From: Candidatus Omnitrophota bacterium
GTDB lineage: Bacteria > Omnitrophota > Gorgyraeia > Zapsychrales > Fredricksoniimonadaceae
Reading direction: 5' to 3'
Assembly (NCBI GenBank): GCA_903836515.1
Contig: CAILQW010000048.1
Location: 316-64,315, forward strand
DNA: 64,000 bases
Part shown: one piece after another, positions 1,427 to 17,424 of the stretch
Layout of the letters: each line of letters opens with the position of its first letter
Position numbering within the stretch: position 1 is the stretch's first letter
The notes under the pieces: model-generated
Told to the model about the DNA's origin: nothing
What the model saw: only the letters and a program-made list of their open reading frames with translations
Database searches by the model: none
Made by a program: the position numbers and the translations under genes

Positions 1427-2311
1427 ATGGATAAGATTTTTTTCTTTATCGAAGGGCATCCAGTATTGATTTCCATTGGCATCGTTTTCTTGGGAGGAGT
1501 CGGGTTTCTCATTAAGAAATGGTTTTTCAATGAAAACACCTCCGCTGTCCCTTTTATTAAAGCGGGTGTGAGCATTTCAGCTGGTGGTGACATCGTTGTC
1601 GGGAATAAAGTGGTTCAGCACGTTTCGTCTAATACGGACACCAATGTTTCTGCAACAGACCGGCTGACGAATATTTTATTTGATGCTCACAATTGGCAGT
1701 ATGACGGCTTAAGTAAGGCATATTATAAGTCTGCGCCAGAATTCACGCTTGAATATGATTCAAAAGAACAAGCCGTTGAGGAACGGTGGTGGGGCAACTT
1801 TCTTGGTAAGGTTACAAAGTTCGATATTGTCTTTAAGTATCACGCGACGGCACTAAAAACAGCATCTTGCTGTCGTTTCGAGGGAGAGGCCTTTAGTATC
1901 CCGTATCCTGATGTGGATTATGTACGCATTGACGTTAGCAGGCAGAAAGATGCGCCCAATACGTATTCGTTATTTTATTTTTTAGAGGATAGCTTTGAAT
2001 TCGCGTTGCTTTTTCATTTATTTGGGGCGAATGCTTCTATCGTCGACAAAGAAAATCGGGAACGGCTTTTTAAAAAAGATGCAATAGCTTCTCAGGTTAA
2101 GCCTCCGATCAGATCGTTGCCGTTCATAGTTTTTAAGAACAACGAAGAAAAGAATGCTTTTATAAAGAAGTTGGAAGGCCATATTGGCGATTTTTTCCGT
2201 CAAAAAGCAATAACGCCTACAATGCAATTAGGGGCTCAGAAATTGCAGGAAGAAAAAGCTTTTGCGTATTGGGCGTATGATTTGTTTTTTAAATTAAAGG
2301 ATATTGAATAA
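1427..2311 (+). CDS. Hypothetical protein with a single N-terminal transmembrane helix, wedged between hsdS and hsdR with overlapping stop and start codons at both junctions
   Basis: 294-aa ORF; hydrophobic segment [18 protein letters not shown] near the N-terminus; its ATG lies 1 nt after the hsdS TGA and its TAA (2309-2311) overlaps the hsdR start region; no recognisable domain. Confidence 0.6.
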
Positions 2312-2321
2312 GTTTGGGGAT

Positions 2322-5300
2322 ATGATGAGGCAAATTATTACTGAATCCGAAGTCGAACAAGCCACGCTGGATATCCTCTCTGCTCAGGGGTACGCGATTG
2401 TCCATGGGCCGGATATAGCGCCTGATGGCCCTAATCCCGAAAGGCAGAGCTACGCGGACGTGGTCCTTGTCGGACGGCTTCGGGAGGCGATAGACCGGAT
2501 TAATCCCAAGATCCCGGCCGAGGGCAAGGATGAGGCGGTCAGGAAGCTTCTTCGTGTTGAAAGCCCCGACCTGCTGGTTAACAACCAGCGGCTTCATGCC
2601 ATGCTGGTCAATGGTGTGGATGTTGAGTATCGCCGGGATGATCAGGTCGTTTCAGATAAAATCTGGCTTTTTGATTTTGCCAATCTCACCAAGAATGAGT
2701 TCCTCGCCGTTAACCAGTTCACCATTATTGAAAACAATCACAATCGCCGACCGGACATCATTCTGTTTGTGAACGGACTGCCGATTGTTGTGCTTGAGCT
2801 CAAGAACCCTGCGGATGAGAATGCGACTGTTCACTCGGCCTTCAAACAGTTTCAGACGTACAAGCTTCAGATTCCTTCCCTCTTTCATTTCGCTGAGGTT
2901 TTGATCGCTTCTGATGGCTTTGACGCTAAAGCCGGGACGATCACGTCAGACTGGGAGAGGTTCCAGCCGTGGAAGACCGTCGACGGTAAGGATAAGGCGC
3001 ATGCGGCTATCCCGCAGATCGAAGTGCTCACCAAGGGTATGCTTAATAAAACGGTGTTGTTGGATCTGATTCGGCATTTTGTTGTTTTTGAGCAGGAGAA
3101 GGATAGCAAGGACGGCTCGCTCAAGATTTCCAAGAAGATTGCCGCGTATCATCAATATTACGCGGTCAACAAAGCCATCGATGAAACTCTTCGCGCGGCT
3201 TCGGCCAAAGGTGACCGGCGTTGCGGTCTCATTTGGCATACGCAGGGCTCCGGCAAGAGCTTGAGCATGGTTTTCTACACTGGCAAGCTTGTATTATCTT
3301 TGGATAATCCGACGGTGATGGTGCTGACAGATCGCAATGACCTTGACGATCAACTTTTCGGGACTTTCTCCCGGTGCAATGAACTTTTACGGCAGTCTCC
3401 GGTTCAGGCTGAAACCCGGTCACAGCTGAGGGATTATTTGAAGGTCTCCTCCGGCGGTGTTGTTTTTACTACTATTCAGAAGTTTTTGCCTGAAGAGCGT
3501 GGCGATACCTATCCGATTCTTTCCGATCGGCGGAATATTGTGGTGATTGCGGATGAAGCCCACCGGAGCCAATACGACTTTATTGATGGCTTTGCCCGGC
3601 ATATGCGTGATGCCTTGCCCAACGCGTCCTTCATCGGGTTTACCGGCACGCCAATTGAGCTTAAAGATAAGAATACCCGGGCAGTGTTCGGTGATTACAT
3701 TGACATTTATGACATTGAGCAGGCGGTTCACGATGGCGCTACGGTCCGTATTTATTATGAGAGTCGTCTGGCCAAGCTGGAATTAAGTGATGCTGAGCGT
3801 CCACAGATTGATCCGAACTTTGAAGAGGCGACCGAAGGCGAAGAGGTTAGCAAAAAGGAAAAGCTTAAAAGCAAATGGGCCCGGATGGAGGCTATTGTCG
3901 GTAGTGAGAAGCGCGTCCGGCAGATTGCCAAGGATATCGTGGATCACTTCGAGGAGAGGTCTAAAAACCTTGAAGGCAAGGGCATGATCGTTTGTATGAG
4001 CCGCCGGATTGCTTTTGACCTCCACAATGAGATTGTGAGGTTGCGCCCCCAGTGGTATCAAAAGGACGATGACAAGGGCGCTTTGAAAGTCATTATGACT
4101 GGCTCAGCGTCAGATCCGGTGGAGTGGCAGGAGCACATAAGGAACAAGCCACGCCGCCGGGACATTGGCGACCGGATGAAAGATCCTTCTGACCCGCTCA
4201 AGCTGGTCATTGTCCGTGACATGTGGCTAACCGGTTTTGATGTGCCGTCGCTTCATACGATGTATATCGACAAGCCGATGCGCGGTCATGGCCTTATGCA
4301 GGCGATCGCTCGCGTCAACCGCGTCTTCAAGGATAAGCCCGGCGGTCTGGTCGTAGACTATTTGGGCATTGCTGATGATCTTAAGAAGGCACTTTCCGAA
4401 TATACGGAAAGCGGTGGTGAGGGTAAGCCGACACTCGATCAGGAAGAGGCCGTCGCGCTCATGCTGGAGAAATATGAGGTTGTTACCGGCATGTTTCACG
4501 GATTTGATTTCCGCAAGTTCTTTTCATCATCCATTACAGAGAAAATGACGATCATCTCACTCGCTCAGGAACATATCCTTGGGCTTGATAAGGGCAAGGA
4601 TCGGTTTCTGGGTTATGTGACGCAGTTGTCACAAGCATTCGCGTTGTCTGTGCCTCACGCGGAGACATTTAAGATCAGGGATGATGTGGGCTTCTTTCAG
4701 GCAGTACGGTCCAGGATCGCTAAGTTTGAAACCGGCACCGGCAAGACAGATGACGACCTGGATTCCGCGATCAGGCAGATTATATCCAAAGCAGTTGTTT
4801 CCGACCGGGTGATTGATATCTTTGAAGCCGCCGGGATCAAGAAACCGGATATCTCTATCCTTTCTGATGAGTTTTTGGCAGAGGTTAAGGGGATGCCGCA
4901 TAAGAATCTCGCCTTTGAGCTGTTAAAGAAGCTTCTTAATGATGAAATCAAATCTCGCTCAAAACGGAATCTTATTCAGGGCCGGTCTTTTGCCGAGCTT
5001 CTGGAGCAGGCGATCAAAAAATATCAGAACAAGGCGATCGAAGCGGCCAAGGTCATTGAAGAATTGATCTCATTGGCCAAGAAGATGCGCGAGGCGGACA
5101 AACGTGGCGAGGATCTGGGGCTGACTTTTGATGAGGTGGCTTTTTACGATGCCCTTGAAGTCAACGATAGCGCGGTTAAGGTTCTTGGTGATGATGAGCT
5201 TCGGATGATTGCCCGGGAGCTGGTCCAAACGGTTCGCAATAATGTCACGATTGACTGGACGCTCAAGGAAAGCGTGCAGGCTAAGCTCCGGATCATGGTC

Positions 5301-5906
5301 AAGCGCATCTTGCGCAAGCACGGGTACCCACCGGATAAAGAAAAGAAAGCTACAGATACGGTCCTCGAACAGGCGACCCTCTTGTGCAAAGACTGGGCCG
5401 ATGTTGCGCCCGTTCGCGGAGCAGATGAGACACTTTTCTTCAGTGATGTGATCTCTGAAGGGGCTTTCGAGGAGGGTTATGTGCCGGTTTATGACCTTCA
5501 GGCCGTGGCAACGGCATTTGGCGAGCAACCAGCGCCATCAGTTAAAGGCTGGAAGCCGATGAATGGCCGAAAGATCAGTAAAGACATGTTTATTGCGCGA
5601 GTGGTCGGAAAATCCATGGAACCGACCATTGCGGACGGCAGCTGGTGTTTGTTCCGGCTTGAACGCGGAGGTTCCCGGCATGGTGTTTATCTGATTGAAT
5701 CCCGGCAGGTCAAGGACCCGGAAACCGGCTTCGCCTTTACGATCAAGCGGTATCATAGCGAAAAGGAAGATTTTGGTAACGGCCAGTGGAAGCACAAAAG
5801 GATTACGCTATCTCCAGATAACAAAACGTTCCCGGATATTATTATCGAGAATGTCGGCGGAGATGATTTTCGGGTTGTGGCGGAATTTGTGAATGTTATT
5901 TGTTAA
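2322..5906 (+). CDS. hsdR: Type I restriction enzyme R subunit HsdR (SF2 helicase-nuclease) with an appended C-terminal LexA-like S24 peptidase domain
   Basis: HsdR N-terminal region ([17 protein letters not shown]...); Walker A ([12 protein letters not shown]); DEAH box ([10 protein letters not shown]); motif III (FTGTPIE); helical C-terminal region typical of HsdR; then the S24-like tail. The ORF track starts at TTG 2304; ATG 2322 preceded by GGGGA is preferred. Confidence 0.85.
5481..5903 (+). other. LexA/UmuD/CI-like S24 serine autopeptidase domain fused in-frame to the C-terminus of HsdR
   Basis: [16 protein letters not shown] / [18 protein letters not shown] / FTIKRYH align with LexA VPLVGRVAAGEP / VSGMSMKDIGIMDGDLLAV / VTVKRLK; Ser codon 5613-5615 and Lys codon 5745-5747 of the catalytic dyad are both present. 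Confidence 0.7.
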
Positions 5907-6005: not shown

Positions 6006-7610
6006 ATGAAGATCGGACGCAATGACCTGTGTTTTTGCGGGAGCGGAAAAAAGTATAAGAAATGTTGCCTGGGTCGTGAGTTGCCCGGGGAACTTAAGCA
6101 TAAGACTCATGATATTTTGCCGGATCGATGGGAGATCGATTATGGCGAGCCGTGTTTGGACAAGGATTTCTTTGACCACAATGGATTGGCAGAATTTTCA
6201 GCAGCCAGAATGATCCAGGCGGCCATGCTGTTCCCCGATGCTGTTGAAGAGGTTGCCAGCGAGGTTCGTCTTGAAACGACCGGGTATCTTGCTGAACTTA
6301 AGGAGATCGAGGAGCTGACGAGGCCGCAGGAGATCGTGCGGTTTTTGAAAAAAGGTCCGGACCGCCTCAATTATCCGCAAGTGTTGGATAAATTTCTGGA
6401 TCATGAAAAAGAAACGGTGCTGTTATTGCTCGAAGAGATGCGAAGTTCCGACAATGAATTATTTGTGGAATGGGCTGTAAAATTGTTCTATGAATCGGAT
6501 TATGTACTTGCTGAAGATATCCTTGAGATTATCGAATTGCATCAGCATGATGCGTATGCGGTTTCTTTGCTTTGTATTTTGTTGGGTTCTTATGATCATC
6601 CCGCTATCCCGAAGTTGTTATGGGATTACTTTCAATATTTCAGGAAGAACTTCCGCGATGAGCTGTACCACGAAGGACCCTTGCTGGCGCTGCGTGAGAT
6701 CCACGAATATATGAATGAGCCGCGGGTATCAGATCCGGAAATGGCCTTGTGGGATGAAGATCGGCTGGCTACTTTTGACGAGAAGGAGCTGGTTGCGCGC
6801 ATGAAAGCGTTGGGTGTTCCTTTGGATAAAGAGACCTTTTTGAAAGATATACAGGGTCTTCATGCGGCAGAAAAGCTGGTTGATCGTTGGGTTGAGAAAT
6901 ATTCCATTCATTCAGTTGGGAACGACGAGGATTTTTTGTGGTTTGGTGCCATGGAGCTTTGGAAACGCTGGGCGCCAGAGGTGATGTTCGATGAGCGTTT
7001 GAGCGATATGATGCAGCGCGGATACGATTGTTTCAACCGAAGAAAGAATCGTGAAGGCTGTGATCTTTGGCTGGAGGTATGGGAAGTCTTCAAGGCGCGG
7101 CACGCGGGGCACGGCAGATCTCTGGAGGGAGTGGACAAGCAATATAGTGGTTCCCAGACTTGGCACAATTGGTGTCAGGATCTGGAGATGAACCTCGGCA
7201 ATCTTGTTCGTGTTTGCCCGGAGTACGCTCCCCGGGCGGTTACGTATTTCAGGGAATTTCGTTTGTTGTTGCCGGAGTCCGATCCATTGATTGTTCAGAA
7301 TATGATGATGGCCGAGGCTGAAGCCCTGATTTTTGGAGGAGACTTGGTTGCGGGAGAGGCTCTTTTTCGGAAAGTAGTGGAATCTTTTTCGGATGATGTT
7401 TGGGGTTATATCCGTTGGGGGGATGTGTTTGCATCGTCGATGTGGTCTTCTTTGGTGCCGCAGGATTTGACAAAAGCTGAAAAAATTTACCGCATGGCGA
7501 TTGGCCGCGGTCTAAAAGAGGAAAAGGAAGTCAATCGCCGGATCAGGGATATGGGAGAAACGCGCCAGGCTCACAAGAATGATCGGATAGGGTCAAGGTT
7601 GTTGAAATGA
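6006..7610 (+). CDS. SEC-C zinc-binding-motif protein (N-terminal CFCGSGKKYKKCC) with a large helical domain of unknown function
   Basis: 534 aa; canonical SEC-C motif at residues 8-22; good RBS GGAGAGG upstream; the remainder matches no family I recognise. Confidence 0.6.
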   Translation: MKIGRNDLCFCGSGKKYKKCCLGRELPGELKHKTHDILPDRWEIDYGEPCLDKDFFDHNGLAEFSAARMIQAAMLFPDAVEEVASEVRLETTGYLAELKEIEELTRPQEIVRFLKKGPDRLNYPQVLDKFLDHEKETVLLLLEEMRSSDNELFVEWAVKLFYESDYVLAEDILEIIELHQHDAYAVSLLCILLGSYDHPAIPKLLWDYFQYFRKNFRDELYHEGPLLALREIHEYMNEPRVSDPEMALWDEDRLATFDEKELVARMKALGVPLDKETFLKDIQGLHAAEKLVDRWVEKYSIHSVGNDEDFLWFGAMELWKRWAPEVMFDERLSDMMQRGYDCFNRRKNREGCDLWLEVWEVFKARHAGHGRSLEGVDKQYSGSQTWHNWCQDLEMNLGNLVRVCPEYAPRAVTYFREFRLLLPESDPLIVQNMMMAEAEALIFGGDLVAGEALFRKVVESFSDDVWGYIRWGDVFASSMWSSLVPQDLTKAEKIYRMAIGRGLKEEKEVNRRIRDMGETRQAHKNDRIGSRLLK

Positions 7611-8425
7611 TGCGACAGGAGAATGCGGTGAGCACGGGATTGACCTTTCAAGAAATCTGTCCGGACTTCGACGAATGGCCAGACAGATGGCAAATAATGT
7701 CCGAGGACAGACCGTATGGACGGGAGTTGCTGACTATTTTCAAGCCTTTTTGTGAGGATCTGGTGGCCAAAGGTTTCTCGAAAAGCACGATTAAAAGACA
7801 TTTGGGTTTCTTGTGGGTTTTGGGCGGCGAGCTGATCGAGGAGATCAATGAGTACGAGGGAAAAAGGACCCGACCGGCCATGGACTTGTTGATGGATCAA
7901 TTGGACCCGGATGGAGGCCCTTATTGTCGTCATTTGGAAGGCGAGTCAGAGCATCGTGCTTTTGACGCGACCTGTAAGAAGCTTTACAAGTTCCTGCAGG
8001 AGAGTCAGGCGAAGGATCGTGAAGCCGGCGCTCCGTCCGGCTACGATACATCGTGGGATCTTGTTTTGGATGAAAAAGGTAATCGGCCAACTAATGAAGC
8101 CGCGTATGATGAGAAAAGCCGTGAATGGCAATGGCGTGACTGGAAGAAGTGGTTGGAAGAAAATCTCGTTTTCCCATTTGATGTTATTCGCAAAGAGGAT
8201 GATGACGATTCTATCGAGATTGCGGCAAATGAGCCTTTCAGCGTTGGGCATCAGATGACCGCGTTTGGATTGGCCGGTGAGATGGGCGGGTACGGGATTA
8301 TTGCTCGGGTGAAGGAACGTCGCCGAAAAGGGCACGCTCCTCTTTGTGACCTTGAGGTGACGCCTCCCGGCGACAGGAACTTCTGGCCTGTTAGGGAGTA
8401 TGTTGTCTGGTTTGCTAACCGGTGA
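7607..8425 (+). CDS. Hypothetical acidic protein, translationally coupled to the SEC-C protein gene
   Basis: 272 aa; the start ATG overlaps the upstream TGA (ATGA at 7607-7610); no recognisable domain; followed by palindromes TTGGTCGACCAA and CTACCGAG...CTCGGTAG. Confidence 0.5.
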   Translation: MMRQENAVSTGLTFQEICPDFDEWPDRWQIMSEDRPYGRELLTIFKPFCEDLVAKGFSKSTIKRHLGFLWVLGGELIEEINEYEGKRTRPAMDLLMDQLDPDGGPYCRHLEGESEHRAFDATCKKLYKFLQESQAKDREAGAPSGYDTSWDLVLDEKGNRPTNEAAYDEKSREWQWRDWKKWLEENLVFPFDVIRKEDDDDSIEIAANEPFSVGHQMTAFGLAGEMGGYGIIARVKERRRKGHAPLCDLEVTPPGDRNFWPVREYVVWFANR

Positions 8426-8592: not shown

Positions 8593-9981
8593 ATGAATAA
8601 TAAAACTTTTCAGAAAATAATTGGCGCGGCAGAATCTACGACTATCGAGTGGAAGAAATCTCTCTCGGTATTTCACGAGATCATGGAGACCATATCCGCA
8701 TTCTCGAATACCGAAGGCGGGAAGATTCTTGTTGGCGTTTCTGATGATGGCGAGGTCTTGGGCGTTCAGATCGGCAAGGGAACGATGGAAGATCTGGTGA
8801 ACAAGATCGGACAGCATACCGACCCCAAAGTTTTTCCAAAGATCTCTGTTAAGAAGGTTGGCGGCAAGGACGTAATCGTTATTGATGTGAAAGAGTCACG
8901 GGATCATCTGATTCTGGCGGATGGCTTGCCGTATAAACGGGTTGGCCGGACATCGCCGAGGATGAGCAAAGATGAGTACGAGCGCCTGATTTTGGAGAAG
9001 CACCGGGGTGCGTTGTCTTTTGATGGTGAGGTTTGCAAGGGCGCCGTGATGACCGATATTGATGCTGAAAAAGTCATGCACTTTCTGTCTGTTGCGAGGC
9101 AGGAGCGCGGGCTTGATATTGATGCGAAGAGTTCGGTCAAAGATGTTTTGATGCGGCTTGATTTACTTAAAGGGAGCAAGTTGACGAATGCGGCTATTTT
9201 GTTGTTCGGGAAGAGGCCGCGGTCATTCTTTACCCAGTCTGAAAGCAAGTGTGTCCGGTTTAAAGGACTTGATGTCACGGGAGAGATGATTGATCTTAAG
9301 CCGATCAATGGTGATATTGTTGCTCAGCTCAGGGATATTGAGAAGTTTATTTATGATCATATTTCCATGCGAGCATGGATTGAGTCGGGGAAAATGGAGC
9401 GGCAGGAGAAATGGGAATATCCTCCCAAGGCTATTCGTGAAGCTTTGGCGAATGCCATGGCGCATCGGGATTTTCGTACAACATCGAAAGTCCAGGTCAG
9501 AATTTTTGATGACAGGATTGAGTTCTGGAATCCGGCCATATTACCGCAAGGCTGGACAGCAGAAACGCTCAAGCAAAAACATGAGTCCAAGCCGTTTAAT
9601 CCGTTGTTGGCAGAGGCCTTCTTTTGGATCAAGTATGCTGAAGAAGTCGGCACTGGCACGGGCAAGATCATTACATGGTGCAGGGGGTGGGGTTTGCCTG
9701 ATCCGGACTTTGAGTATGCTGGAAGTAGTCTGGTTGTAACGTTGCGCAAGACGAAATTAACCGAACAGTATTTGAAAGATGCGAATCTTTCAAAACGGCA
9801 GGTGAGTGCTTTTGAGCATATGAAGACAGGTCTTAAAATGACCAGTATCGAATATGCGAAAATGTTTGGTGTAACAGACAGGACGGCGCGGAATGATTTG
9901 TCTGCGATGGTTGAAAAGGGGCTTGTTAAGAAAGTCGGGACGGGTGATAGAAACACTGCGTATGTGTTAGCGGAAATTTAG
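8593..9981 (+). CDS. COG2865-type protein: Schlafen/AlbA_2 (divergent AAA) domain plus HATPase-like domain plus C-terminal HTH, the family often mis-annotated as RecG-like or as a transcriptional regulator
   Basis: 462 aa; N-terminal AlbA_2-like region (IEWKKSLSVFHEIMETISAFSNTEGGKILVGVSDDGEVLGV); central ATPase-like region; C-terminal HTH (SIEYAKMFGVTDRTARNDLSAMVEKGLVKK). Confidence 0.7.
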   Translation: MNNKTFQKIIGAAESTTIEWKKSLSVFHEIMETISAFSNTEGGKILVGVSDDGEVLGVQIGKGTMEDLVNKIGQHTDPKVFPKISVKKVGGKDVIVIDVKESRDHLILADGLPYKRVGRTSPRMSKDEYERLILEKHRGALSFDGEVCKGAVMTDIDAEKVMHFLSVARQERGLDIDAKSSVKDVLMRLDLLKGSKLTNAAILLFGKRPRSFFTQSESKCVRFKGLDVTGEMIDLKPINGDIVAQLRDIEKFIYDHISMRAWIESGKMERQEKWEYPPKAIREALANAMAHRDFRTTSKVQVRIFDDRIEFWNPAILPQGWTAETLKQKHESKPFNPLLAEAFFWIKYAEEVGTGTGKIITWCRGWGLPDPDFEYAGSSLVVTLRKTKLTEQYLKDANLSKRQVSAFEHMKTGLKMTSIEYAKMFGVTDRTARNDLSAMVEKGLVKKVGTGDRNTAYVLAEI

Positions 9982-10008
9982 CGGAAATTTAGCGGAATAA
10001 ATTTCCGC
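9969..10008. repeat. Repeat block U1: AGCGGAAATTT three times in tandem (third copy degenerate), ending in an inverted copy (AAATTTCCGC)
   Basis: Copies at 9969, 9980, 9991 (11-bp spacing); the first copy overlaps the stop codon of the COG2865 gene. Confidence 0.8.
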
Positions 10009-10064
10009 AGATATTATTTTCACAAATGGGGAGTATTTAAGGGCGGGGAAATATCTGCGTAACT

Positions 10065-10098
10065 GGTTGACGTAATGTTGACGCAAGGTTGACGCGAG
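10065..10098. repeat. Repeat block U2: GTTGACG(T/C)(A/G)A(T/G) three times with an 11-bp period; each unit contains a -35-like TTGACG
   Basis: GTTGACG at 10066, 10077, 10088. Confidence 0.8.
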
Positions 10099-10158
10099 AT
10101 GCACTTTCTTGCCGGGCATATTGAGATAGTGGTGGCGCAATGATTCGAGCACTGCGAT

Positions 10159-10191
10159 GGCACGATTGTGGCACGATTACGGCACGATTAG
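10159..10191. repeat. Repeat block U3: GGCACGATT(G/A)N three times with an 11-bp period
   Basis: GGCACGATT at 10159, 10170, 10181; a related GCACTGCGATG immediately precedes it. Confidence 0.8.
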
Positions 10192-10307
10192 TTCGAATTG
10201 AGATTTGCCATGTGCTGCACAGTGGTGGTCGGGTCGTACGGAAATAATCACGACAATAATCATGACACATTGTCGCGATTGGTAAATGGTAAGGATTTGC
10301 TTATTTT

Positions 10308-10340
10308 GACTGCACGGTCACTGCGCGGTCACTGCACGGT
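10308..10340. repeat. Repeat block U4: (G/C)ACTGC(A/G)CGGT three times with an 11-bp period
   Basis: Units at 10308, 10319, 10330. Confidence 0.8.
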
Positions 10341-10348
10341 CTTGAAGA

Positions 10349-10392
10349 TATCGGTAAGCAATCGGTAAGCAGTTTTGTTTAATCGGTAATCA
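10349..10392. repeat. Repeat block U5: ATCGGTAAGCA twice, then ATCGGTAATCA displaced by exactly 22 bp, so the 11-bp phase is kept
   Basis: Units at 10349, 10360, 10382. Confidence 0.8.
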
Positions 10393-10536
10393 GCGCTGAT
10401 GGTGGCTTTCAAGCGAGCGGGCATCATTTGCGAGGACAAAGTCAATCAACTCCACATATCGCAAAAGTGTGGATTAAAGTGATTGCATGATTCCCAAAAG
10501 GGTCAGTTTGTGGAAATTTAAACAAGGGAGGCTATC

Positions 10537-11028
10537 GTGGGCTATTCAAATGAGAACACGCAACGCGTGATTGAAGCGTTTAACGGGAAGAACATGGATC
10601 TGGACGACGGGTCGAAATGGCATTTCAGCGTTCAGCAACCGCCGTCGAATTGGGCGGCGCAGGATAAGGTTGTGGTCGAGAAAGCGGGGATGATGTATAC
10701 GGTCCGTAATCTGACCAAGAAGTCAAATGGCATTGCCGCGTTCATACAGGATGCTTTGGAAACAACGCCTAAAGATAATACGAAGAAATTTTTGGAACCG
10801 ATCTGTGATGAGGAGCTGACAATCGTCAAGATTCATCCTGATGGTTTGATTGAATTGAATGAAGGCCCGAGCTATCGTCCCGGCGGAGTCAATCCGGCCA
10901 AGATCGATTATAAAATGTGGGAGCCGGGGAATGCCGTTAAACTTGTTTCAAAGAATTCAAGATTCGGGCTATGTGAAATGCAAAATTTGACCAAGAGACG
11001 GTCCATGGATGTCATGCAGGACAAATAA
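10537..11028 (+). CDS. Hypothetical small protein, paralogous to the next ORF
   Basis: 163 aa; GTG start with RBS AAGGGAGG 5 nt upstream; shares the DGS(K/Q)W...W...V.V...G....YT(V/I).N pattern with the following ORF. Confidence 0.5.
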   Translation: MGYSNENTQRVIEAFNGKNMDLDDGSKWHFSVQQPPSNWAAQDKVVVEKAGMMYTVRNLTKKSNGIAAFIQDALETTPKDNTKKFLEPICDEELTIVKIHPDGLIELNEGPSYRPGGVNPAKIDYKMWEPGNAVKLVSKNSRFGLCEMQNLTKRRSMDVMQDK

Positions 11029-11041
11029 GAAAGGGCTCTTT

Positions 11042-11437
11042 ATGGAATCAAAACGCTTTAGTGGGGACTTGGTTAATAAAGTTTTGAAGCCCAAGGAAAC
11101 GAAAAAGGCCAACGCGTTAGAAGTGGCTCTTGAGAAAAGGGTTGATCATGATCGGAGATACAAGAATTTGAACCAGCCGATCAAGATTGAAAGCGTTGAG
11201 GCTGATTGTAAGACGATAGTTCTCAAGGACGGATCACAATGGTCTGCTGTTTATGGTTTCGGGTTAAGTGAGGATTACGCCACTGACTGGGCGGCCAATG
11301 AGACTGTCATCGTTATTGGGACCAAGGGCGGCGACAGTGCGGTTTATACAATAAAGAATATCAGTTCCGGGAGCCAGTCGCGCTGGTCTTTTGTTGAGTA
11401 TGTGGATGGCAGGGGGCCGCAATCAAAAGGAAGATAG
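11042..11437 (+). CDS. Hypothetical small protein, tandem paralog of 10537-11028
   Basis: Start moved to the internal ATG at 11042 (MESKRF), just after the upstream stop; same motif pattern (DGSQWSAVYG...VYTIKNISSG). Confidence 0.5.
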   Translation: MESKRFSGDLVNKVLKPKETKKANALEVALEKRVDHDRRYKNLNQPIKIESVEADCKTIVLKDGSQWSAVYGFGLSEDYATDWAANETVIVIGTKGGDSAVYTIKNISSGSQSRWSFVEYVDGRGPQSKGR

Positions 11438-11440
11438 GAT

Positions 11441-12247
11441 ATGGAAGAGCCCAAAAGGAATAAGAATTATAGCGACCAGGTTCTGAATCTTACTCAGGCA
11501 AATGAGTTATTACAGGATCATGCCAAAGAAATCCGGGCGTTTTATGATCAGAAGAAGACGCCTCTTTTTGAGATCGCCTTTTTTATCTTGGATAAATATT
11601 CAGAGTGGAGAAGGGCGAACCCCGGCGCGAAGTTTAGTTATTATCTATTTAATCTAATTAAGGCTGGAAAACTTAGCAAGAACAAGAAGTCGACATTAAA
11701 GTTAGGGTTTAAGGTCACCCAAGTTTTTTCTGATTTAAGAAACCCGAACAAGAGACGCATGTTATTTGATTCTTATCGTGAGATTGCAAATGCCGATATA
11801 ACTCAGGAACAGAAGGACGAATTGCGGCAAGAGGCTGAAGACAATGGATATAGTGGCAGGAAAATTCGAGAAATCATCGATGCCAGGTTCAATAATGGTT
11901 TAAAGGGCAAGAATGGAATTGTTACAAAGCGCATGTTTTGTGAAGCTGATCCGAAGGGTGAAGAAATACTATGGAAGCTGATTAATTTAAGATTCTTGGT
12001 AGAGATTGGTTTAGATAAAGTTCGCTTGGTGCGTCAGAGCGTCGCTGCTGCTAGGCCTGCGGAAATGCAGAGCCCTAATTTTGATGAAATTTGGGTCACT
12101 CTGGAAAATGAGGAGGTGCGGGCTTCGAAACGGAAACATATTTTTTATAGAGACCACGATAACTTCATTGCCATTGTTAAAAGCTCTCTTGAATTGTGGA
12201 AACCTGAGGAAGGAGACAGATTTATTTTAAAAAAACTTCGCAGATAA
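11441..12247 (+). CDS. Hypothetical protein (268 aa, basic, Lys-rich)
   Basis: RBS AAGGAAG before the ATG; no recognisable domain. Confidence 0.5.
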   Translation: MEEPKRNKNYSDQVLNLTQANELLQDHAKEIRAFYDQKKTPLFEIAFFILDKYSEWRRANPGAKFSYYLFNLIKAGKLSKNKKSTLKLGFKVTQVFSDLRNPNKRRMLFDSYREIANADITQEQKDELRQEAEDNGYSGRKIREIIDARFNNGLKGKNGIVTKRMFCEADPKGEEILWKLINLRFLVEIGLDKVRLVRQSVAAARPAEMQSPNFDEIWVTLENEEVRASKRKHIFYRDHDNFIAIVKSSLELWKPEEGDRFILKKLRR

Positions 12248-12588: not shown

Positions 12589-13845
12589 ATGAATATCGAA
12601 AAAGTGAGCATCAACAGGATTAACCCTGCTGCTTATAACCCCAGAATCGACCTTAAGCCGGGGAACAAGGAATACGAGAAGTTGAAGCAAAGCATTGATA
12701 CCTTTGGATATGTGGAGATTTTGGTCTGGAATTGCCGCACCGGCAATCTGGTGGGTGGGCATCAAAGGCTCAAAATCCTGCTTGCTCAAGGGGTTGAGGA
12801 GGTGGAGGTCAGCGTGGTTGACCTTGATATAGAGAAGGAGAAGGTCCTGAATCTGGCCCTGAATCGGGTTAGGGGTGATTGGGATCAGGACAAACTGGCC
12901 GTATTGATGCAGGAGTTAACAAAATTGCCTGATTTCAATACAGCTCTGACCGGATTCAATCTTCCGGAGATCAACAAGATCCTCACTGACTTTGAGGTAG
13001 CCAATGAGGATGTGTTTAACGGCGCTTCCATAGATCCCAAGGACAATGCTGTTACGGTCCTTGGGGATCTCATTGAATTGGGCGGTCATCGGATTTTATG
13101 CGGTGATTGTTCCAAGCCCGAAGATCTGAAGCGGCTGTTTGGCGATCAAAAAGCCGATATGGTCTTCACGGACCCGCCTTACGGATGTTCGTATAACAGC
13201 GGCAATCGACCCGGGGCCAACGGTAACGGGAAATGGGCCATGATCGAAAATGATGACAAGCCCCAGCCCGAGTATGAGAAATGGTTAGCGGGTGTTATTG
13301 ATAACTTGACCCCGTTTATTGCAACGGGCGCTCCGTTTTATATCTGGAACGGCAGTCGTCAGTTTGCCCCCATGTACGAGATGCTTCTTAAGAACGGGAT
13401 GCATATATCGTGCGTTATCACGTGGGCAAAAGAATCGTTCTCGGCTGGTTATGTTGATTATCACCACCAGACCGAGTTTTGCATCTACGGATGGAAAGAT
13501 CAAAACGGCGCGCACAGGTTTTTCGGCGCAAATAATGAAACCAACCTCTGGCAGATCAAGCGTGATTCCAGAAGCGATGCCATTCATCCCACTCAGAAGC
13601 CTGTGGCTCTGGCCCATCGAGCGATCAGGAACAGTTCAAGAGGCGGGGAGATCGTTTTCGACGCGTTCTTAGGATCAGGGACCACCTTGATCGCGGCGGA
13701 TGGGTTAAAGCGCCGGTGTTTTGGAACTGAGATTAAACCTCACTTTGTTGACGCCATTGTTCGGCGATACGTCAAGGTTGCGGGTGCAGGCGGTGTTTCA
13801 AAAGAGGTGTTAACAAAATACAAACTTGGGGAAGGGGGGCAGTAA
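12589..13845 (+). CDS. ParB-like nuclease domain fused to a DNA (N6-adenine/N4-cytosine) methyltransferase; a phage-type orphan methylase
   Basis: N-terminal ParB/Srx motif (NLVGGHQRLKIL); DPPY motif (VFTDPPYGCSY) followed by the AdoMet motif (FDAFLGSGTTLIAA); this order indicates a beta-class amino-methyltransferase; the architecture is typical of phage packaging regions. Confidence 0.8.
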   Translation: MNIEKVSINRINPAAYNPRIDLKPGNKEYEKLKQSIDTFGYVEILVWNCRTGNLVGGHQRLKILLAQGVEEVEVSVVDLDIEKEKVLNLALNRVRGDWDQDKLAVLMQELTKLPDFNTALTGFNLPEINKILTDFEVANEDVFNGASIDPKDNAVTVLGDLIELGGHRILCGDCSKPEDLKRLFGDQKADMVFTDPPYGCSYNSGNRPGANGNGKWAMIENDDKPQPEYEKWLAGVIDNLTPFIATGAPFYIWNGSRQFAPMYEMLLKNGMHISCVITWAKESFSAGYVDYHHQTEFCIYGWKDQNGAHRFFGANNETNLWQIKRDSRSDAIHPTQKPVALAHRAIRNSSRGGEIVFDAFLGSGTTLIAADGLKRRCFGTEIKPHFVDAIVRRYVKVAGAGGVSKEVLTKYKLGEGGQ

Positions 13846-13877
13846 AACAACAAGGTTGGTCAAACGGTAAAACAACA

Positions 13878-14306
13878 ATGAAAGTTAAAAAAGAAAGGGA
13901 TCATTTTATGGTTTTCAAATATCAAAGTAAGCGGCATCCGGATGCAATCAATGTTTTGCGTTTGGTTGAAGATGAAGACTTGGATGTAAGTGAAATAACA
14001 AAAGAGATGCGACAGGGTTGCATTGAAATCCTCACACGCGAGGCATACTCAGACTCAGCAATTGCAATGAAATTAAGAACAACAATAAGTGTTGTTGAGT
14101 CGGATCAAAACGAAATACAAGCGGTCAATTCAAAGGCCTTGTATGTCAGTCGTGTGCGAGTTGAGATTGAGACGGCTAAAGGGAAGTCACGAGAGATTCG
14201 AAGAACTCGCCAGGACTTTAAGAAGGGGCCCGGTGAGGATGCCTATAAAGCCATAACAAGGGAGATCGTTATCAAGGAGGCAAGAAAACATGCCAAACGA
14301 AACTAA
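13878..14306 (+). CDS. Small phage-associated protein with a putative sigma-70 region-4-like HTH
   Basis: 142 aa; the QGCIEILTREAYSDSAIAMKLRTTISVV segment resembles an HTH; alternative start at ATG 13908. Confidence 0.45.
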   Translation: MKVKKERDHFMVFKYQSKRHPDAINVLRLVEDEDLDVSEITKEMRQGCIEILTREAYSDSAIAMKLRTTISVVESDQNEIQAVNSKALYVSRVRVEIETAKGKSREIRRTRQDFKKGPGEDAYKAITREIVIKEARKHAKRN

Positions 14307-14964
14307 TAAGGAAGAGCTTTCGACCTTTGAAATGCTCAAACGGATTCAGGCGGGGAGCCTGAATCCGAGGACGCTGACGGAAGAGCAGCGGCAGGAATGC
14401 GTTGAACTGTTAAGGCTGGAAGGCCAGACGCACGCGGCCATTGCGGAACTTCTCAAGTGGAACATCAAAACAATCAAACGCGACTGGAATGAAATTCGCA
14501 GCAGGAATGCGAAAAAACCGACACCGGAATTCGCGCTGCGTCATATCGCGGAGTTGATCGAGCAGTCCGGTTCAAAACACGACCATCTGACGCGAATGGC
14601 GCGTGGAGATGATGGAACGGTTCAGGAGCGCTCTCAGGCGGAATACTATGCGTTTAAAGTCCTGAGTGAGACCACGCAGTTGTTACAGACCATGGGGTAT
14701 TTGCCATCTAAGGCAACGAAGTTCATGGGGGATGTTTATCACCACCATGACGATGGCCGAGATCCCAAGGAAATGAGAGCCGAGATCGACCGGATAGAAA
14801 AGATCGTGTCCGAGGAGGGGATACAAGATCCGGCCATGCAGGCACGGTTGGAGGCGTTAAGAAAGAAAGTCGACCTGGCTGAAGTGGATAAACAAATAAC
14901 CGATTTGTCGGCGAATGTCGCTGATAAAACAACAACAAACAAGGAGGATGGAAGCAATGGCTAA
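14290..14964 (+). CDS. Putative terminase small subunit (HTH-containing protein immediately upstream of and overlapping terL)
   Basis: 224 aa; RBS AAGGAGG; HTH-like segment EEQRQECVELLRLEGQTHAAIAELLKWNIKTIKRD; synteny with terL. Confidence 0.45.
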   Translation: MPNETNKEELSTFEMLKRIQAGSLNPRTLTEEQRQECVELLRLEGQTHAAIAELLKWNIKTIKRDWNEIRSRNAKKPTPEFALRHIAELIEQSGSKHDHLTRMARGDDGTVQERSQAEYYAFKVLSETTQLLQTMGYLPSKATKFMGDVYHHHDDGRDPKEMRAEIDRIEKIVSEEGIQDPAMQARLEALRKKVDLAEVDKQITDLSANVADKTTTNKEDGSNG

Positions 14965-16570
14965 TATTAATCTCAAGGAATTCGGTAAACAGAACGTGAT
15001 GGTATTTGCGAGGACATATTTCTCGCATTACCTGAAAACAAATCCGTGTGGGTTTCATCGGGAGCTTTGCGAATTGTTGCAAGGCTTGAATACAAAACGC
15101 GGTGGCCGATTGGCGGTCGCCGCCCCGCGTGGAAGCGCGAAGAGTACCTTCGTCAGTTTGATCTATGTTTTATGGTGCATTTGTTATTCCAAAGAGCAGT
15201 ACATCGTTTTGCTCTCGGACACCAGCGATCAGGCTGAAGGTCTTCTGGCGCACGTTAAAAATGAGCTCGAGAACAACGAGCATTTGAGACGTGATTTCCC
15301 GGAGGCTTGTATCGCGGAGGATGATAAAAAGTTGGGCGTTTGGAAAAAAGAGGAGATCGTCACAAAGAATAACATTAAGGTGACGGCGCTCGGCGCAGGC
15401 CAGAAGATACGAGGCCGGAGGCATCAGGAACACCGTCCCACGTTGATCATTCTTGATGATATTGAGAATGATGAAAACACGCAGAACGGTGAATCAATGG
15501 ACAAGCTGAACGAATGGTTCGAGCGGGCGGTCCTGAAAGCGGGAACGACCACAACCAATGTTGTTTTGGTTGGGACCATTCAGCATTACGGGTGTCTTTT
15601 GTCCCGGTTAACAAAGGAAGAAGCAACGGGATGGAATAAACGGATCTACCGGTCGGTTATTTCATCTGCCAAGAGGGAAGACCTCTGGGCAAAATGGTTC
15701 ACGCTTTACAGAGGGCTCGATTGTTACGGTCAAAATGAAGGGGCCGCTGCGGCAGCGGACTTCTTTAAGGACAACGAGAAGGAAATGATAGACGGGGTAT
15801 CTGTCCTCTGGCCTGAAAAGGAAAGTTATCAGGACTTGATGGTCATGCGTGAAGAGGAAGGCGAGAGCAGCTTCAACGCTGAGAAACAAAATGAACCGGT
15901 TGATCCGAAGAATGCATTCTTTAAATGGGATGGCTTTCAGTTCTGGGATCAGCAATACAGGAATGAGGAAGAGCTAAGATCGGCGTTTGGCGACAAGCTG
16001 GCATATTATGCGGCTGTTGATCCGAGTTTGGGGAAGCCCGGTAAGCGTGGGGATTATTCGGCGATAGTGGTCATTGCTAAGCATGTTGATACGAAAGCGG
16101 CATTTGTTTTGGTCGCTGACATTGCTAAAAGAACCCCGGATAATCTGGTGCAGGCCGTTATAAACCTTGGCCGATTCTACAGGTTTAGCGCGGTTTTCGT
16201 TGAGGCCAACCAGTTTCAGGAGCTGCTGGTTCGTGACATTGAAGAGAGAGCGTACAGCATGGGGATTTCGCTCAATATTCAAAGGGTTACGAGTCGGCTC
16301 GACAAGCTGGCCCGAATTCAAGGTCTTGAGCCTTGGATCACTCAAGGAAAAATCAAGTTCGCTCAAACCCAGAGGCTATTGCTGGATCAGTTTAGGCATT
16401 TTCCAAAAGGGGCGCATGATGACGGTCCGGACGCTTTGGAGATGGCGATCTCAGGGCCTGATAAACGAAAAGGCGGGTTTGTCATAGTTGATCTTAATAA
16501 TGACCCTTACGATGACGATGATGACGACGATGATGATGGGCCGTGTTATAGCGTCAATTCAATCATATAA
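14957..16570 (+). CDS. terL: Phage terminase large subunit (ATPase plus nuclease) with a C-terminal poly-Asp tail
   Basis: Walker A (AAPRGSAKST); LLSDTSDQAEGLL; C-terminal RNase-H-like nuclease region; a D9 run near the C-terminus; start chosen at ATG 14957, 9 nt after AAGGAGG, while the ORF track begins at 14915. Confidence 0.85.
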   Translation: MANINLKEFGKQNVMVFARTYFSHYLKTNPCGFHRELCELLQGLNTKRGGRLAVAAPRGSAKSTFVSLIYVLWCICYSKEQYIVLLSDTSDQAEGLLAHVKNELENNEHLRRDFPEACIAEDDKKLGVWKKEEIVTKNNIKVTALGAGQKIRGRRHQEHRPTLIILDDIENDENTQNGESMDKLNEWFERAVLKAGTTTTNVVLVGTIQHYGCLLSRLTKEEATGWNKRIYRSVISSAKREDLWAKWFTLYRGLDCYGQNEGAAAAADFFKDNEKEMIDGVSVLWPEKESYQDLMVMREEEGESSFNAEKQNEPVDPKNAFFKWDGFQFWDQQYRNEEELRSAFGDKLAYYAAVDPSLGKPGKRGDYSAIVVIAKHVDTKAAFVLVADIAKRTPDNLVQAVINLGRFYRFSAVFVEANQFQELLVRDIEERAYSMGISLNIQRVTSRLDKLARIQGLEPWITQGKIKFAQTQRLLLDQFRHFPKGAHDDGPDALEMAISGPDKRKGGFVIVDLNNDPYDDDDDDDDDGPCYSVNSII

Positions 16571-16919
16571 AAGGGCGGATCATGGCGGACAGCAGCTGAA
16601 GGGCGCAGGTTTTCGCGGACTGCGCTCTTCTCTTTTGCTCACAATTAAGCAGTGTCCCCGCGAGGGACATCGACGGAAAGGGGACATTTCTGGTTTTCAT
16701 GAGGGGACATGTTGTAAGTGTTTGATCTTGAAGGCTTTCATTGTTTTTGTCTCGTCGTGAAAAGGGTCAAGAAGGACATGTTTTGGTTCTATTTGTCCCT
16801 ACAAACTTATCTCTAAAACGCTGGTTTTGGATTTTTTGTGATAGTATAAGCAGAGCTTGTTGGAGAGGTAGACAGCGGCGTGTCACCACTCCCCCCAGCT
16901 TGTTTTTTCTCTTAAAAAA

Positions 16920-16957
16920 CTAAAACCTCGTTCCCTTTGGGCGAGGTTTTAGTTTTC
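16920..16957 (+). terminator. Rho-independent terminator hairpin (CTAAAACCTCG ttccctttggg CGAGGTTTTAG) followed by TTTTCTTT
   Basis: Perfect 11-bp stem followed by a T-run on the + strand. Confidence 0.6.
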
Positions 16958-16973
16958 TTTAGAAGAAAAACAA

Positions 16974-16997
16974 CACCCAAAAGGATTCTTTTGGGTG
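16974..16997 (-). terminator. Hairpin CACCCAAAA-ggattc-TTTTGGGTG; acts as a terminator for the minus-strand genes and is followed by a T-run on the minus strand
   Basis: 9-bp stem; the minus-strand read continues TTGTTTTTC; sits at the 3' end of the recombinase remnant. Confidence 0.5.
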
Positions 16998-16998
16998 C

Positions 16999-17424
16999 TT
17001 ATTCCCGTCGTGGAAAGATGCAACTGGCCCCGATATTGCCAAAATCCTGATGCCAGAGAGTATGGGGAGGCGTATAACAAGTATAACGACAGCACGCAAA
17101 GTGAATGATCTTGCCGTGATTATGGATCAGATCGTTGATCTTGATCTTGTCGATGTCATTGCGGGTCATCCGGTCGGTGATGTCAAAGATGATGTGCTTG
17201 ATCTTTGGATGGGCTATGGCAAATTCGATCACTTGATTAAATGCCACGCGATCTTTCTTTTTATTCCAGGCAGATTCGATGACCCTCCAGGTTTTGACGA
17301 TCCTCAGGTTTCTGCGATCCGCATAGTCTTGCCCAAGCCTTTCTTGTGCATCTAAAGAAAAGCCGTCATTTTGCTTCTTGTTGGAGATGCGGCCATAATG
17401 GAGGGCGTCTTCTTGTTGCTCCAT
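16999..17424 (-). pseudogene. Serine recombinase (resolvase/invertase family) N-terminal catalytic-domain remnant, truncated after about 110 residues
   Basis: YGRISNKKQNDGFSLDAQ (cf. YARVSTxxQ..SLxxQ) and FDITDRMTRN (cf. DRLGRD) are present, but the frame then degenerates (..ACCRYTCYTPPHTLWHQDF..) and runs into the terminator hairpins. Confidence 0.6.

Follow-up and report, generated by a model that had tools for sequence, protein, structure and literature searches.

Triplets of 11-bp repeats at the stop codons of prokaryotic Schlafen genes as candidate docking sites for the proteins' own winged helix-turn-helix domains

Tandem direct repeats of 11 base pairs (bp) are the operators of the B12-dependent CarH tetramer, with three copies in Thermus and four in Bacillus (PMC9304148), and three contiguous 11-bp direct repeats form the 'bind' locus of pMV158 RepB, where they are bound by the domains of a ring-shaped oligomer (PMC9943647). 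In this study, we report arrays of the same period at and beyond the stop codon of a prokaryotic Schlafen gene in a stretch of 64,000 nucleotides from a Candidatus Omnitrophota bacterium (contig CAILQW010000048.1), hereafter the window, to which all positions refer unless another locus is named. The architecture concerned, HisKinase/GHKL-HTH or 'Schlatpase'-HTH (HTH, helix-turn-helix), is the most common one among prokaryotic Schlafens (pSlfns): in one survey HisKinase-HTH accounted for 19% of the pSlfns and in another an HTH was present in more than 90% of the 'Schlatpase' C-terminal tails (PMC13056530; bioRxiv 10.64898/2026.05.29.728809). Both papers are silent on the ligand of the HTH and on repeats, and the HisKinase-HTH class lay outside their tests (PMC13056530; bioRxiv 10.64898/2026.05.29.728809). 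An earlier note on this DNA, made from its letters alone, knew of no described element built from several different 11-bp units. None was found in open-access text, and the open-access literature yielded no description of arrays at stop codons; the building principle is nevertheless known from CarH and pMV158 RepB.

The gene that owns the repeats lies on the forward strand at 8593-9981 and encodes a protein of 462 amino acids (aa) with a Slfn/AlbA_2 nuclease domain, a GHKL-type ATPase (HATPase_c_4) and a C-terminal winged HTH (wHTH). Pfam matched SLFN_AlbA_2 (PF04326) at 8.3e-23 and the GHKL-type ATPase HATPase_c_4 (PF13749) at 9.7e-20, and the catalytic E-x4-(E/D)-x-K motif, present as E14-x4-E19-x-K21, was invariant in alignment A2. 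Foldseek matched the protein to 3LMM and to the nuclease domains of SLFN11/12/13/14. The wHTH (residues 401-462) is encoded at 9793-9981 on the forward strand; in the AF2 model it consists of helices at residues 401-411, 418-425 and 429-441, the last being the recognition helix (TDRTARNDL...), followed by a beta hairpin at 445-459, and Foldseek found its fold to be like the wHTH domains of CadC, CzrA and MarR. Judged by its sequence, the protein is a member of the pSlfn HisKinase-HTH or 'Schlatpase'-HTH class. Its context is one of defence, with type I restriction-modification (R-M) genes and PDC-S50-like and SEC-C neighbours. The repeat stretch had been placed between defence genes and an ORFan and phage-like module, which is its correct position, but the link to the gene whose stop codon it covers had not been drawn.

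The period-11 arrays span 9967-10392, where Tandem Repeats Finder reports five such places. Self-match at a lag of 11 over 9961-10400 was 0.40 vs. 0.258 ± 0.021 in shuffles (n = 2000), no other lag stood out in this interval, and the rest of the 64 kb held no comparable period-11 cluster, such runs being otherwise almost absent. All blocks are described on the forward strand. Block 1 (9967-10008) carries AGCGGAAATTT at 9969, 9980 and 9991, the third copy being partial, and then an inverted copy, AAATTTCCGC; its array as delimited by Tandem Repeats Finder is 9967-9997 (2.8 copies, 100% match). The earlier note had it overlapping the stop codon of the upstream gene and closing in an inverted copy, and both observations are correct, as the block spans the TAG at 9979-9981 and its terminal inverted copy forms a hairpin at 9981-10008. 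Block 2 (10065-10097) contains three copies of GGTTGACG(T/C)AA (array at 10065-10095, 2.8 copies, 85% match) and block 3 (10157-10190) three copies of (A/G/C)(T/C)GGCACGATT (array at 10157-10190, 3.1 copies, 86% match). The triplet of block 4 (10308-10341; array at 10309-10341, 3.0 copies, 90% match), previously written as CACTGC(A/G)CGGT, is present but reads (G/C)ACTGC(A/G)CGGT, its first copy starting with G (GACTGCACGGT). In block 5 (10350-10392; array at 10350-10371, 2.0 copies, 100% match) ATCGGTAAGCA starts at 10350 and 10361 rather than at 10349 and 10360, and ATCGGTAATCA follows at 10382. This third copy, of the ATCGGTAA type and given before as displaced by 22 bp, is in fact 21 bp from the second, so the strict 11-bp period attributed to every block holds for the five arrays while the last copy of block 5 is one base off register. 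A sixth block had been overlooked, AATAATCACGAC in 2.1 copies with a period of 12 at 10243-10267 (Tandem Repeats Finder), and it had no counterpart in the other loci compared. As had been observed, the unit sequences are mutually unrelated, five or six of them being present. In addition, an inverted repeat, GCAGATATT ... AATATCTGC at 10008-10016 and 10051-10059, flanks the spacer between blocks 1 and 2 and is kept in L009 and L011 (handles beginning with L denote the loci compared with the window).

The repeat stretch was 100% identical in eight independent metagenome contigs (L001-L008), which excludes an assembly artefact. Two diverged relatives, L011 (96%) and L009 (93%), retain the whole stretch with altered copy numbers: L009 carries four units in block 2, L011 two in block 4, and both carry two in block 3. 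The indels between relatives are exact 11-bp steps and would shift any frame; therefore the stretch is not coding, in agreement with the earlier note, whose five 11-bp blocks in a non-coding stretch are confirmed by Tandem Repeats Finder, the lag-11 test and these indels. A small open reading frame (ORF) at 10198-10368 was ruled out as a gene by the same steps. Phase variation was also discarded, because the first stop lies in the first unit and copy number leaves the protein unchanged.

Arrays of this kind are a property of the gene family. A total of 160 loci with homologues (40-98% identity) were fetched from species-representative genomes and metagenomes, and an array was accepted when it had a period of 11, at least 2.5 copies and a start between −40 and +60 of the stop codon, redundancy being removed. 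Under these rules 84 of 124 non-redundant homologues had an array at the stop, vs. one of 308 unrelated genes of the same loci; five of 22 extra paralogues had one as well. The period was exactly 11 in 78 of 87 arrays, copy number was about three in 61 of 87, and the stop codon was contained in 42 of 90. The carriers belong to Omnitrophota, Planctomycetota, Elusimicrobia, Nitrospirae and many archaea, including ANME, Altiarchaeota and Thermoplasmata. The array of block 1 together with its inverted copy also occurs after homologues that end in ...LAEI at the stop codon and are only 60-68% identical. Genes downstream of the arrays are heterogeneous (convergent in 25 of 97 cases) and no copies of the unit were found upstream of family genes in the loci examined; therefore the array belongs to the gene itself. 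Some first arrays are expanded, with 14.7 copies of TGGACGATTAG in L137 (approximately 5360-5520) and 5.8 copies of GGTCGATTAGT after the stop in L061.

The unit is not the same in all homologues, and its sequence is paired with that of the recognition helix. Units of the class (A/G)CGGAAATTT go with ...TDRTARNDL..., TGCGTCAGATT with ...SRDTANR(W/Y)L..., TGCGACGCATT with ...SKDTAFREL..., AGTGAACGATT with ...IGKV.A.KEL... and TATGCCAACTT with ...NRETLRKDL.... At each level of N-terminal identity, the C-terminal 62 residues were more similar in pairs of homologues with the same unit; where N-terminal identity was at least 80%, C-terminal identity was 0.91 if the unit was shared and 0.33 if it was different. 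The unit thus follows the C-terminal wHTH class and not the N-terminal phylogeny, and, since C-terminal similarity splits by unit, wHTH and array are exchanged as one module. Such an exchange is seen at this very locus, where L012 is an allele in the same slot: its DNA is 87% identical to the window over 8632-9755, then encodes a different wHTH, and directly after the stop codon has three copies of TTGCGTCAGAT with an 11-bp period. The alignment columns that best predict the unit are S418, A422 and F425 in helix 2 and T428, D429, R430, R433, N434 and D435 in the recognition helix, with association z values of 8-14 in these two helices vs. 0-4 in columns of equal variability from the ATPase, the linker and helix 1. 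This pattern fits a direct read-out of the unit by the recognition helix, although it is not proof of it.

The first (primary) arrays are also conserved at the nucleotide level. A class-wise comparison of unit identity is partly circular, the classes being defined by the unit, and 18 pairs chosen by coding-sequence similarity alone were used instead. In these, first arrays diverged by 2.5%, four-fold degenerate sites by 19.6% and the next 150 nt by 25.5%. Divergence of the arrays is thus about eight times slower than that of synonymous sites, a sign of strong purifying selection on them; ordinary flanks evolve neutrally. These values bear on the idea that the repeats are a functionless mutational by-product, of replication slippage or as footprints of transposon target sites. 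Copy number does shift in 11-bp steps and extreme expansions such as the 14.7 copies in L137 do exist; against this, the arrays are far more constrained than synonymous sites, identical units are found across bacteria and archaea at 64-74% coding-sequence identity, copy number is tightly centred on three and just one of the 308 control genes has an array, so that we hardly give this idea any credence. Transposon footprints in particular were rejected, the arrays being too conserved and too specific to one gene family.

We consider it reasonably probable that the arrays are the Schlafen proteins' own docking sites, with one unit for each wHTH class, and that blocks 2-5 come from other modules of this kind. 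Block 1 (AGCGGAAATTT) would most likely be the cognate docking site of the resident protein, by analogy with the operators described above. As in the CarH tetramer, an oligomer would place its wHTH domains on consecutive 11-bp units along one face of the helix, and each C-terminal wHTH class would read its own unit, provided at the stop or across it in about three head-to-tail copies. Blocks 2-5 and the 12-bp doublet may be elements of the same kind for other wHTH specificity classes, brought in or left behind as C-terminal modules or paralogues turned over at the locus. Binding would tether or park the nuclease at its own locus, or would act as an autoregulatory roadblock; we favour these possibilities over promoter control because the site is at the 3′ end of the gene whatever lies downstream. 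The general idea of the earlier note, helical-turn-spaced sites of several specificities for DNA-binding proteins, is the best supported reading, but its specific candidates are not supported; the owner of the blocks is the upstream gene and not the ORFan and phage-like module or the XRE and Bro-N regulators.

A further reading, which we regard as unlikely though worth stating, makes the array a cis-encoded DNA 'parking site' or antidote, the docked Schlafen-GHKL nuclease remaining an inactive DNA-bound oligomer until infection. Docking would then take place on three or four sites right where translation ends, and toxin and DNA antidote would necessarily be co-inherited, a requirement that would explain the overlap with the stop codon, the joint exchange of wHTH and array and the many specificity pairs. 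Having many pairs would keep paralogues from cross-talk or prevent phage decoys from titrating the protein, and stacks such as that of the window would be docking hubs common to several paralogues.

With respect to the additional blocks, 40 of 121 homologues are followed by a stack of at least two different arrays, the most extreme stacks, with six, being those of the window and L009, and later arrays are always oriented as they are when they occur as first arrays elsewhere. The unit type of block 2 recurs, with some flanking sequence included, in L036, where it comes first behind the stop codon, and in L046, where it is one of the later arrays, and that of block 3 is the first array in L173, L014/L095 and L023. 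In L173 a block-4-like array comes after a block-3-like array and is followed by a single CGGTAAGTAA in the position of block 5, so that the order 3-4-5 is as in the window; blocks 3-5 are probably one composite derived from an L173-type gene. Two possible remnants of C-terminal tails, both on the forward strand and suggestive only, precede the blocks. One, at 10024-10062 before block 2, reads KWGVFKGGEISA up to a stop codon (KGGEISA), and L036 ends in ...KGGHWEVSASV directly before two copies of GTTGACGCGAG; the nucleotide-level match was not significant. The other, at 10096-10143 before block 3, ends in ...FLAGHIEIVVAQ and a stop codon (AGHIEIVVAQ), and L173 ends in ...KGGYWEVLNSD before four copies of ATGGCACGATT, the alignment of spacer and tail giving p = 0.016 by shuffling. 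When the window's own spacers were searched for wHTH-coding relics by tblastn, the outcome was no better than with a reversed-sequence control. In other loci, with the search restricted to spacers and the C-terminus of the resident gene excluded, wHTH C-termini were still encoded in 7-9 of 36 spacers before later arrays and in none of the reverse-complement control. Additionally, L066 contains a 5′-truncated pseudogene that has retained its array, and L088 two wing-tail remnants, each with an array. We conclude from these sequence comparisons that the extra blocks appear to derive from other 3′ modules. A separate stack was observed in L046 (1-420), 3.6 kb upstream of another family gene, with five short arrays in the order CTGTGGAGAAAG x2, GGTCGGAGAAAA x3 (period 12), an 84-aa wHTH fragment, GTGGTCGAATA x2, GGTTGACGTAA x3 and ATGGCGTGAAT x3.

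Such an origin leads to the question of whether blocks 2-5 are fossils that evolve neutrally, the last visible traces of truncated paralogues or of 3′ modules once present, preserved through homogenization by slippage and bound by nothing. The wHTH-coding relics and the truncated pseudogene of L066 before later arrays elsewhere speak in favour of it, as do the drift of copy number among close relatives and the condition of the later arrays, which are shorter and less perfect than first ones (2.6 vs. 3.4 copies; inter-copy match of 89% vs. 94%). The conserved non-coding block at 9982-10489 (no strand assigned), whose end is where homology to L009 stops, 47 bp short of the next gene, does not behave in this way. 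Its 508 bp have diverged by 3.2% in L009 and 2.1% in L011, whereas the adjacent gene has diverged by 9.6-9.7% at four-fold degenerate sites; the block is thus 3-5 times slower (p = 1e-3 and 4e-5), arrays and spacers being equally slow. The stack shared by L098 and L103 likewise has no changes in 150 nt vs. 6 in 58 four-fold sites, whereas ordinary flanks are neutral, and the order of blocks 3-4-5 has been retained in the distant L173. We therefore hold the fossil explanation to be possible but doubtful, and the slow divergence suggests that blocks 2-5 may still be used, for example by paralogous proteins.

Several points weigh against docking by the Schlafen proteins and must be considered together. 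The covariation of unit and wHTH could be in part the physical linkage of adjoining segments, and peaks in the recognition helix are also what is expected of any subfamily-defining positions. For a binding site located at the 3′ end of the gene of its own binder, no regulatory rationale is apparent. About one third of the close homologues have no detectable array, and none was found in five distant homologues (27-29% identity) that cultured bacteria carry on plasmids; therefore arrays are not obligatory for the architecture. As regards blocks 2-5, the coding relics in the window are only suggestive, the slow divergence could result from recent recombination, and the lines of evidence diverge, degeneracy pointing to decay and slow divergence to use.

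The gene order in the surroundings is hsdS, hsdR-S24, the SEC-C protein, a 272-aa protein, the Schlafen, the repeats and three ORFans, followed by a ParB-methylase, two small proteins, a large terminase, a resolvase fragment, Bro-N and an ISL3 fragment. This order allows the stretch to be read as a multi-operator region, promoter or 5′ leader of the downstream operon of ORFan, ParB-methylase and terminase genes, recognized by XRE, Bro-N or small proteins, and the stretch does lie upstream of that operon and is conserved as a whole block; viral contigs moreover hold triple 11-bp repeats with the same 7-8-nt cores. However, L009, L010 and L094 are homologous to the window from hsdR onwards up to 10489, the repeats included, and not beyond; their first downstream genes differ, the methylase is only 66% identical, and the repeat block is as similar (93-97% identity) as the genes upstream. 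The repeat blocks of L009 have been retained at 96.8% identity, its downstream genes having been replaced. As homology breaks after the blocks, the repeats travel with the upstream block. A terminator-like hairpin stands between block and next gene in L009, the same unit types follow Schlafen homologues in unrelated settings that lack a phage module, and a promoter scan of the block found nothing. Control of the downstream operon is accordingly improbable. The hairpin of L009 (approximately 9940-9975; alignment A1 columns 640-680) consists of AACCCGTCGGGGTT then TTGTGTTTT, before the first downstream gene, and nothing comparable was seen in the window. For the ORFan at 10537-11028, relatives were confined to one cluster and viral matches were absent, so that it was of no use as an anchor for comparison.

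The recognition of the blocks as replication-origin iterons, or as a pac/cos packaging site of a phage-like or satellite element, would have a precedent in the three tandem repeats of the pMV158 RepB bind locus, and a terminase is encoded 4.5 kb downstream of the stretch. GTTGACG x3 also adjoins a primase-like gene in viral contig L191. Nevertheless, no initiator (Rep) gene is adjacent, there are five unrelated unit types instead of one, the arrays go with Schlafen genes in ordinary chromosomal contexts and exact block-1 triplets are absent from IMG/VR; we find this explanation extremely unlikely. In viral scans, exact triplets of block 1 and of TGCGTCAGATT gave zero matches, while GCACGATT x3 was found in 9 viral contigs and GTTGACG x3 in 21, not beside Schlafen genes; there they are generic iterons. 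A common core of 7-8 nt is thus not diagnostic, because such triplets also occur in viral contigs. The viral scans gave no support to the phage-decoy idea. One viral contig, L185 (5183-6752), has GCACGATT x3 some 120-150 bp upstream, not downstream, of a weak Schlafen-GHKL homologue (25% identity). Three proposals of the earlier note are affected by this comparison. Iteron-like origin elements do not agree with five or six unrelated units and no adjacent initiator. Recombinase arm-type sites are contradicted by the absence of an adjacent integrase, the only candidate being a 141-aa resolvase fragment 7 kb away, and by the break in L009, which falls after the blocks and not at an internal core. 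Finally, identity with a known phage structure, named as a ground for refutation, did not emerge, since a BLAST search with the stretch found no match among phage and plasmid records.

An element acting at the RNA level, either a 3′ untranslated region or an independent RNA binding the nuclease as in type III toxin-antitoxin systems, or a structured RNA, was also taken into account. The arrays are in or just past the 3′ end of the transcript, the protein bears an RNase domain, and ToxI-type antitoxins are tandem repeats. The repeats of type III systems (ToxI) are 34-45 nt long and located upstream of the toxin gene, with a terminator between, whereas the units described here are 11 nt, far below that length, and downstream of the gene. 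No Rfam match at E ≤ 1 was obtained over 9000-11500 and the fold z-score was only −1.95, so the structured non-coding RNA that had been suggested is not borne out. In addition, the unit varies with the recognition helix, which is part of a DNA-binding fold of the MarR/ArsR type, and the strict 11-bp period matches the helical repeat of DNA. An RNA-level role is for these reasons very improbable.

Other features of the locus were recorded. HsdR (1200 aa, 2304-5906) has a C-terminal Peptidase_S24 (LexA-like) domain at residues 1090-1194, a fusion also present in L002, L003 and L009. Allelic loci differ in the cargo carried between or behind their type I R-M genes: a 294-aa PDC-S50-like protein in the window (1427-2311), a 500-aa reverse transcriptase (RVT_1) in L009 (220-1722), and a SMODS protein with a 204-aa protein in L012 (3493-4993). 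The region 6006-8425 encodes a 534-aa protein with an N-terminal SEC-C motif and the 272-aa protein, their genes overlapping by four bases (7607-7610); both genes are always upstream of the Schlafen gene in this lineage, and SEC-C protein, 272-aa protein and Schlafen may be one system. The phage-like module at 12589-17424 is minimal, with a ParB_N-methylase fusion, two small proteins with sigma-70 region-4-like matches and the large terminase; the 141-aa resolvase fragment marks its end, and genes for capsid, portal or tail are lacking. This truncated set is also present in L008 and L011, and a diverged version in L009. A 65-bp segment at 17033-17097, inside the resolvase fragment, is 100% identical to L009 14774-14838, at the end of a 641-aa terminase-like gene, within an otherwise unalignable region. 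The guanine plus cytosine (G+C) content is 40-52% in 1-30000, which includes the defence genes, the phage remnant and the transposase fragment, vs. 56-62% in 30000-64000, and the first 30 kb are therefore marked as an acquired island.

If the arrays are docking sites, a class-specific 11-bp triplet is a concrete candidate ligand for the HTH of the largest group of prokaryotic Schlafens. The loci would in addition provide a natural table of pairs of recognition helix and DNA unit, usable for the study of wHTH specificity and for predicting cross-talk between paralogues, and the stacks would record, or exploit, a frequent exchange of specificity modules in defence islands. What is new here is the position of the array at the stop codon of its own gene, the many pairs of wHTH and unit, and the stacks.

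Among the systems compared, the gene at 8593-9981 has the same architecture as the HisKinase/GHKL-HTH Schlafens, and it is part of a defence island, with a type I R-M system adjoining it. Its arrays resemble CarH operators in being head-to-tail direct repeats of 11 bp, usually three, with a unit composed of a conserved core and free positions, and at least three contiguous copies at this period were indeed found. In CarH, the oligomer uses its winged-helix domains to read the sites from one face of the DNA, and a similar reading is what we infer for the Schlafen arrays. They differ in that CarH sites overlap the promoter of the regulated genes and control initiation, whereas the Schlafen arrays are at or over their own stop codon; no arrays were found upstream, and no promoter-like site in the block. 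CarH also has one consensus, nnnnTnnACAn, while the Schlafen arrays comprise dozens of unit types, each with its wHTH class, which can be stacked. The RepB bind locus has in common with them the helical-turn spacing and, if the Schlafens bind their arrays, the proximity to the gene of the binding protein; unlike it, part of a replication origin with a nick site and bound by an initiator protein, the repeat stretch has no initiator or origin features and has five unit types. In PhoB/OmpR and SARP boxes winged-helix monomers are arranged head to tail on repeats with an 11-bp period, but these are promoter elements that recruit RNA polymerase, and the Schlafen wHTH is MarR/ArsR-like by fold, not OmpR-like. 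Centromere sites can trail the gene of their binder, as sopC after sopB and P1 parS after parB, and R1 parC consists of 11-bp iterons. As would hold for the Schlafen family, a repeated site is linked to the gene of its binder, often downstream of it, and specificity pairs diversify; in contrast, the Schlafen locus has no partition NTPase or plasmid context, and its protein is a nuclease-ATPase of a defence island.

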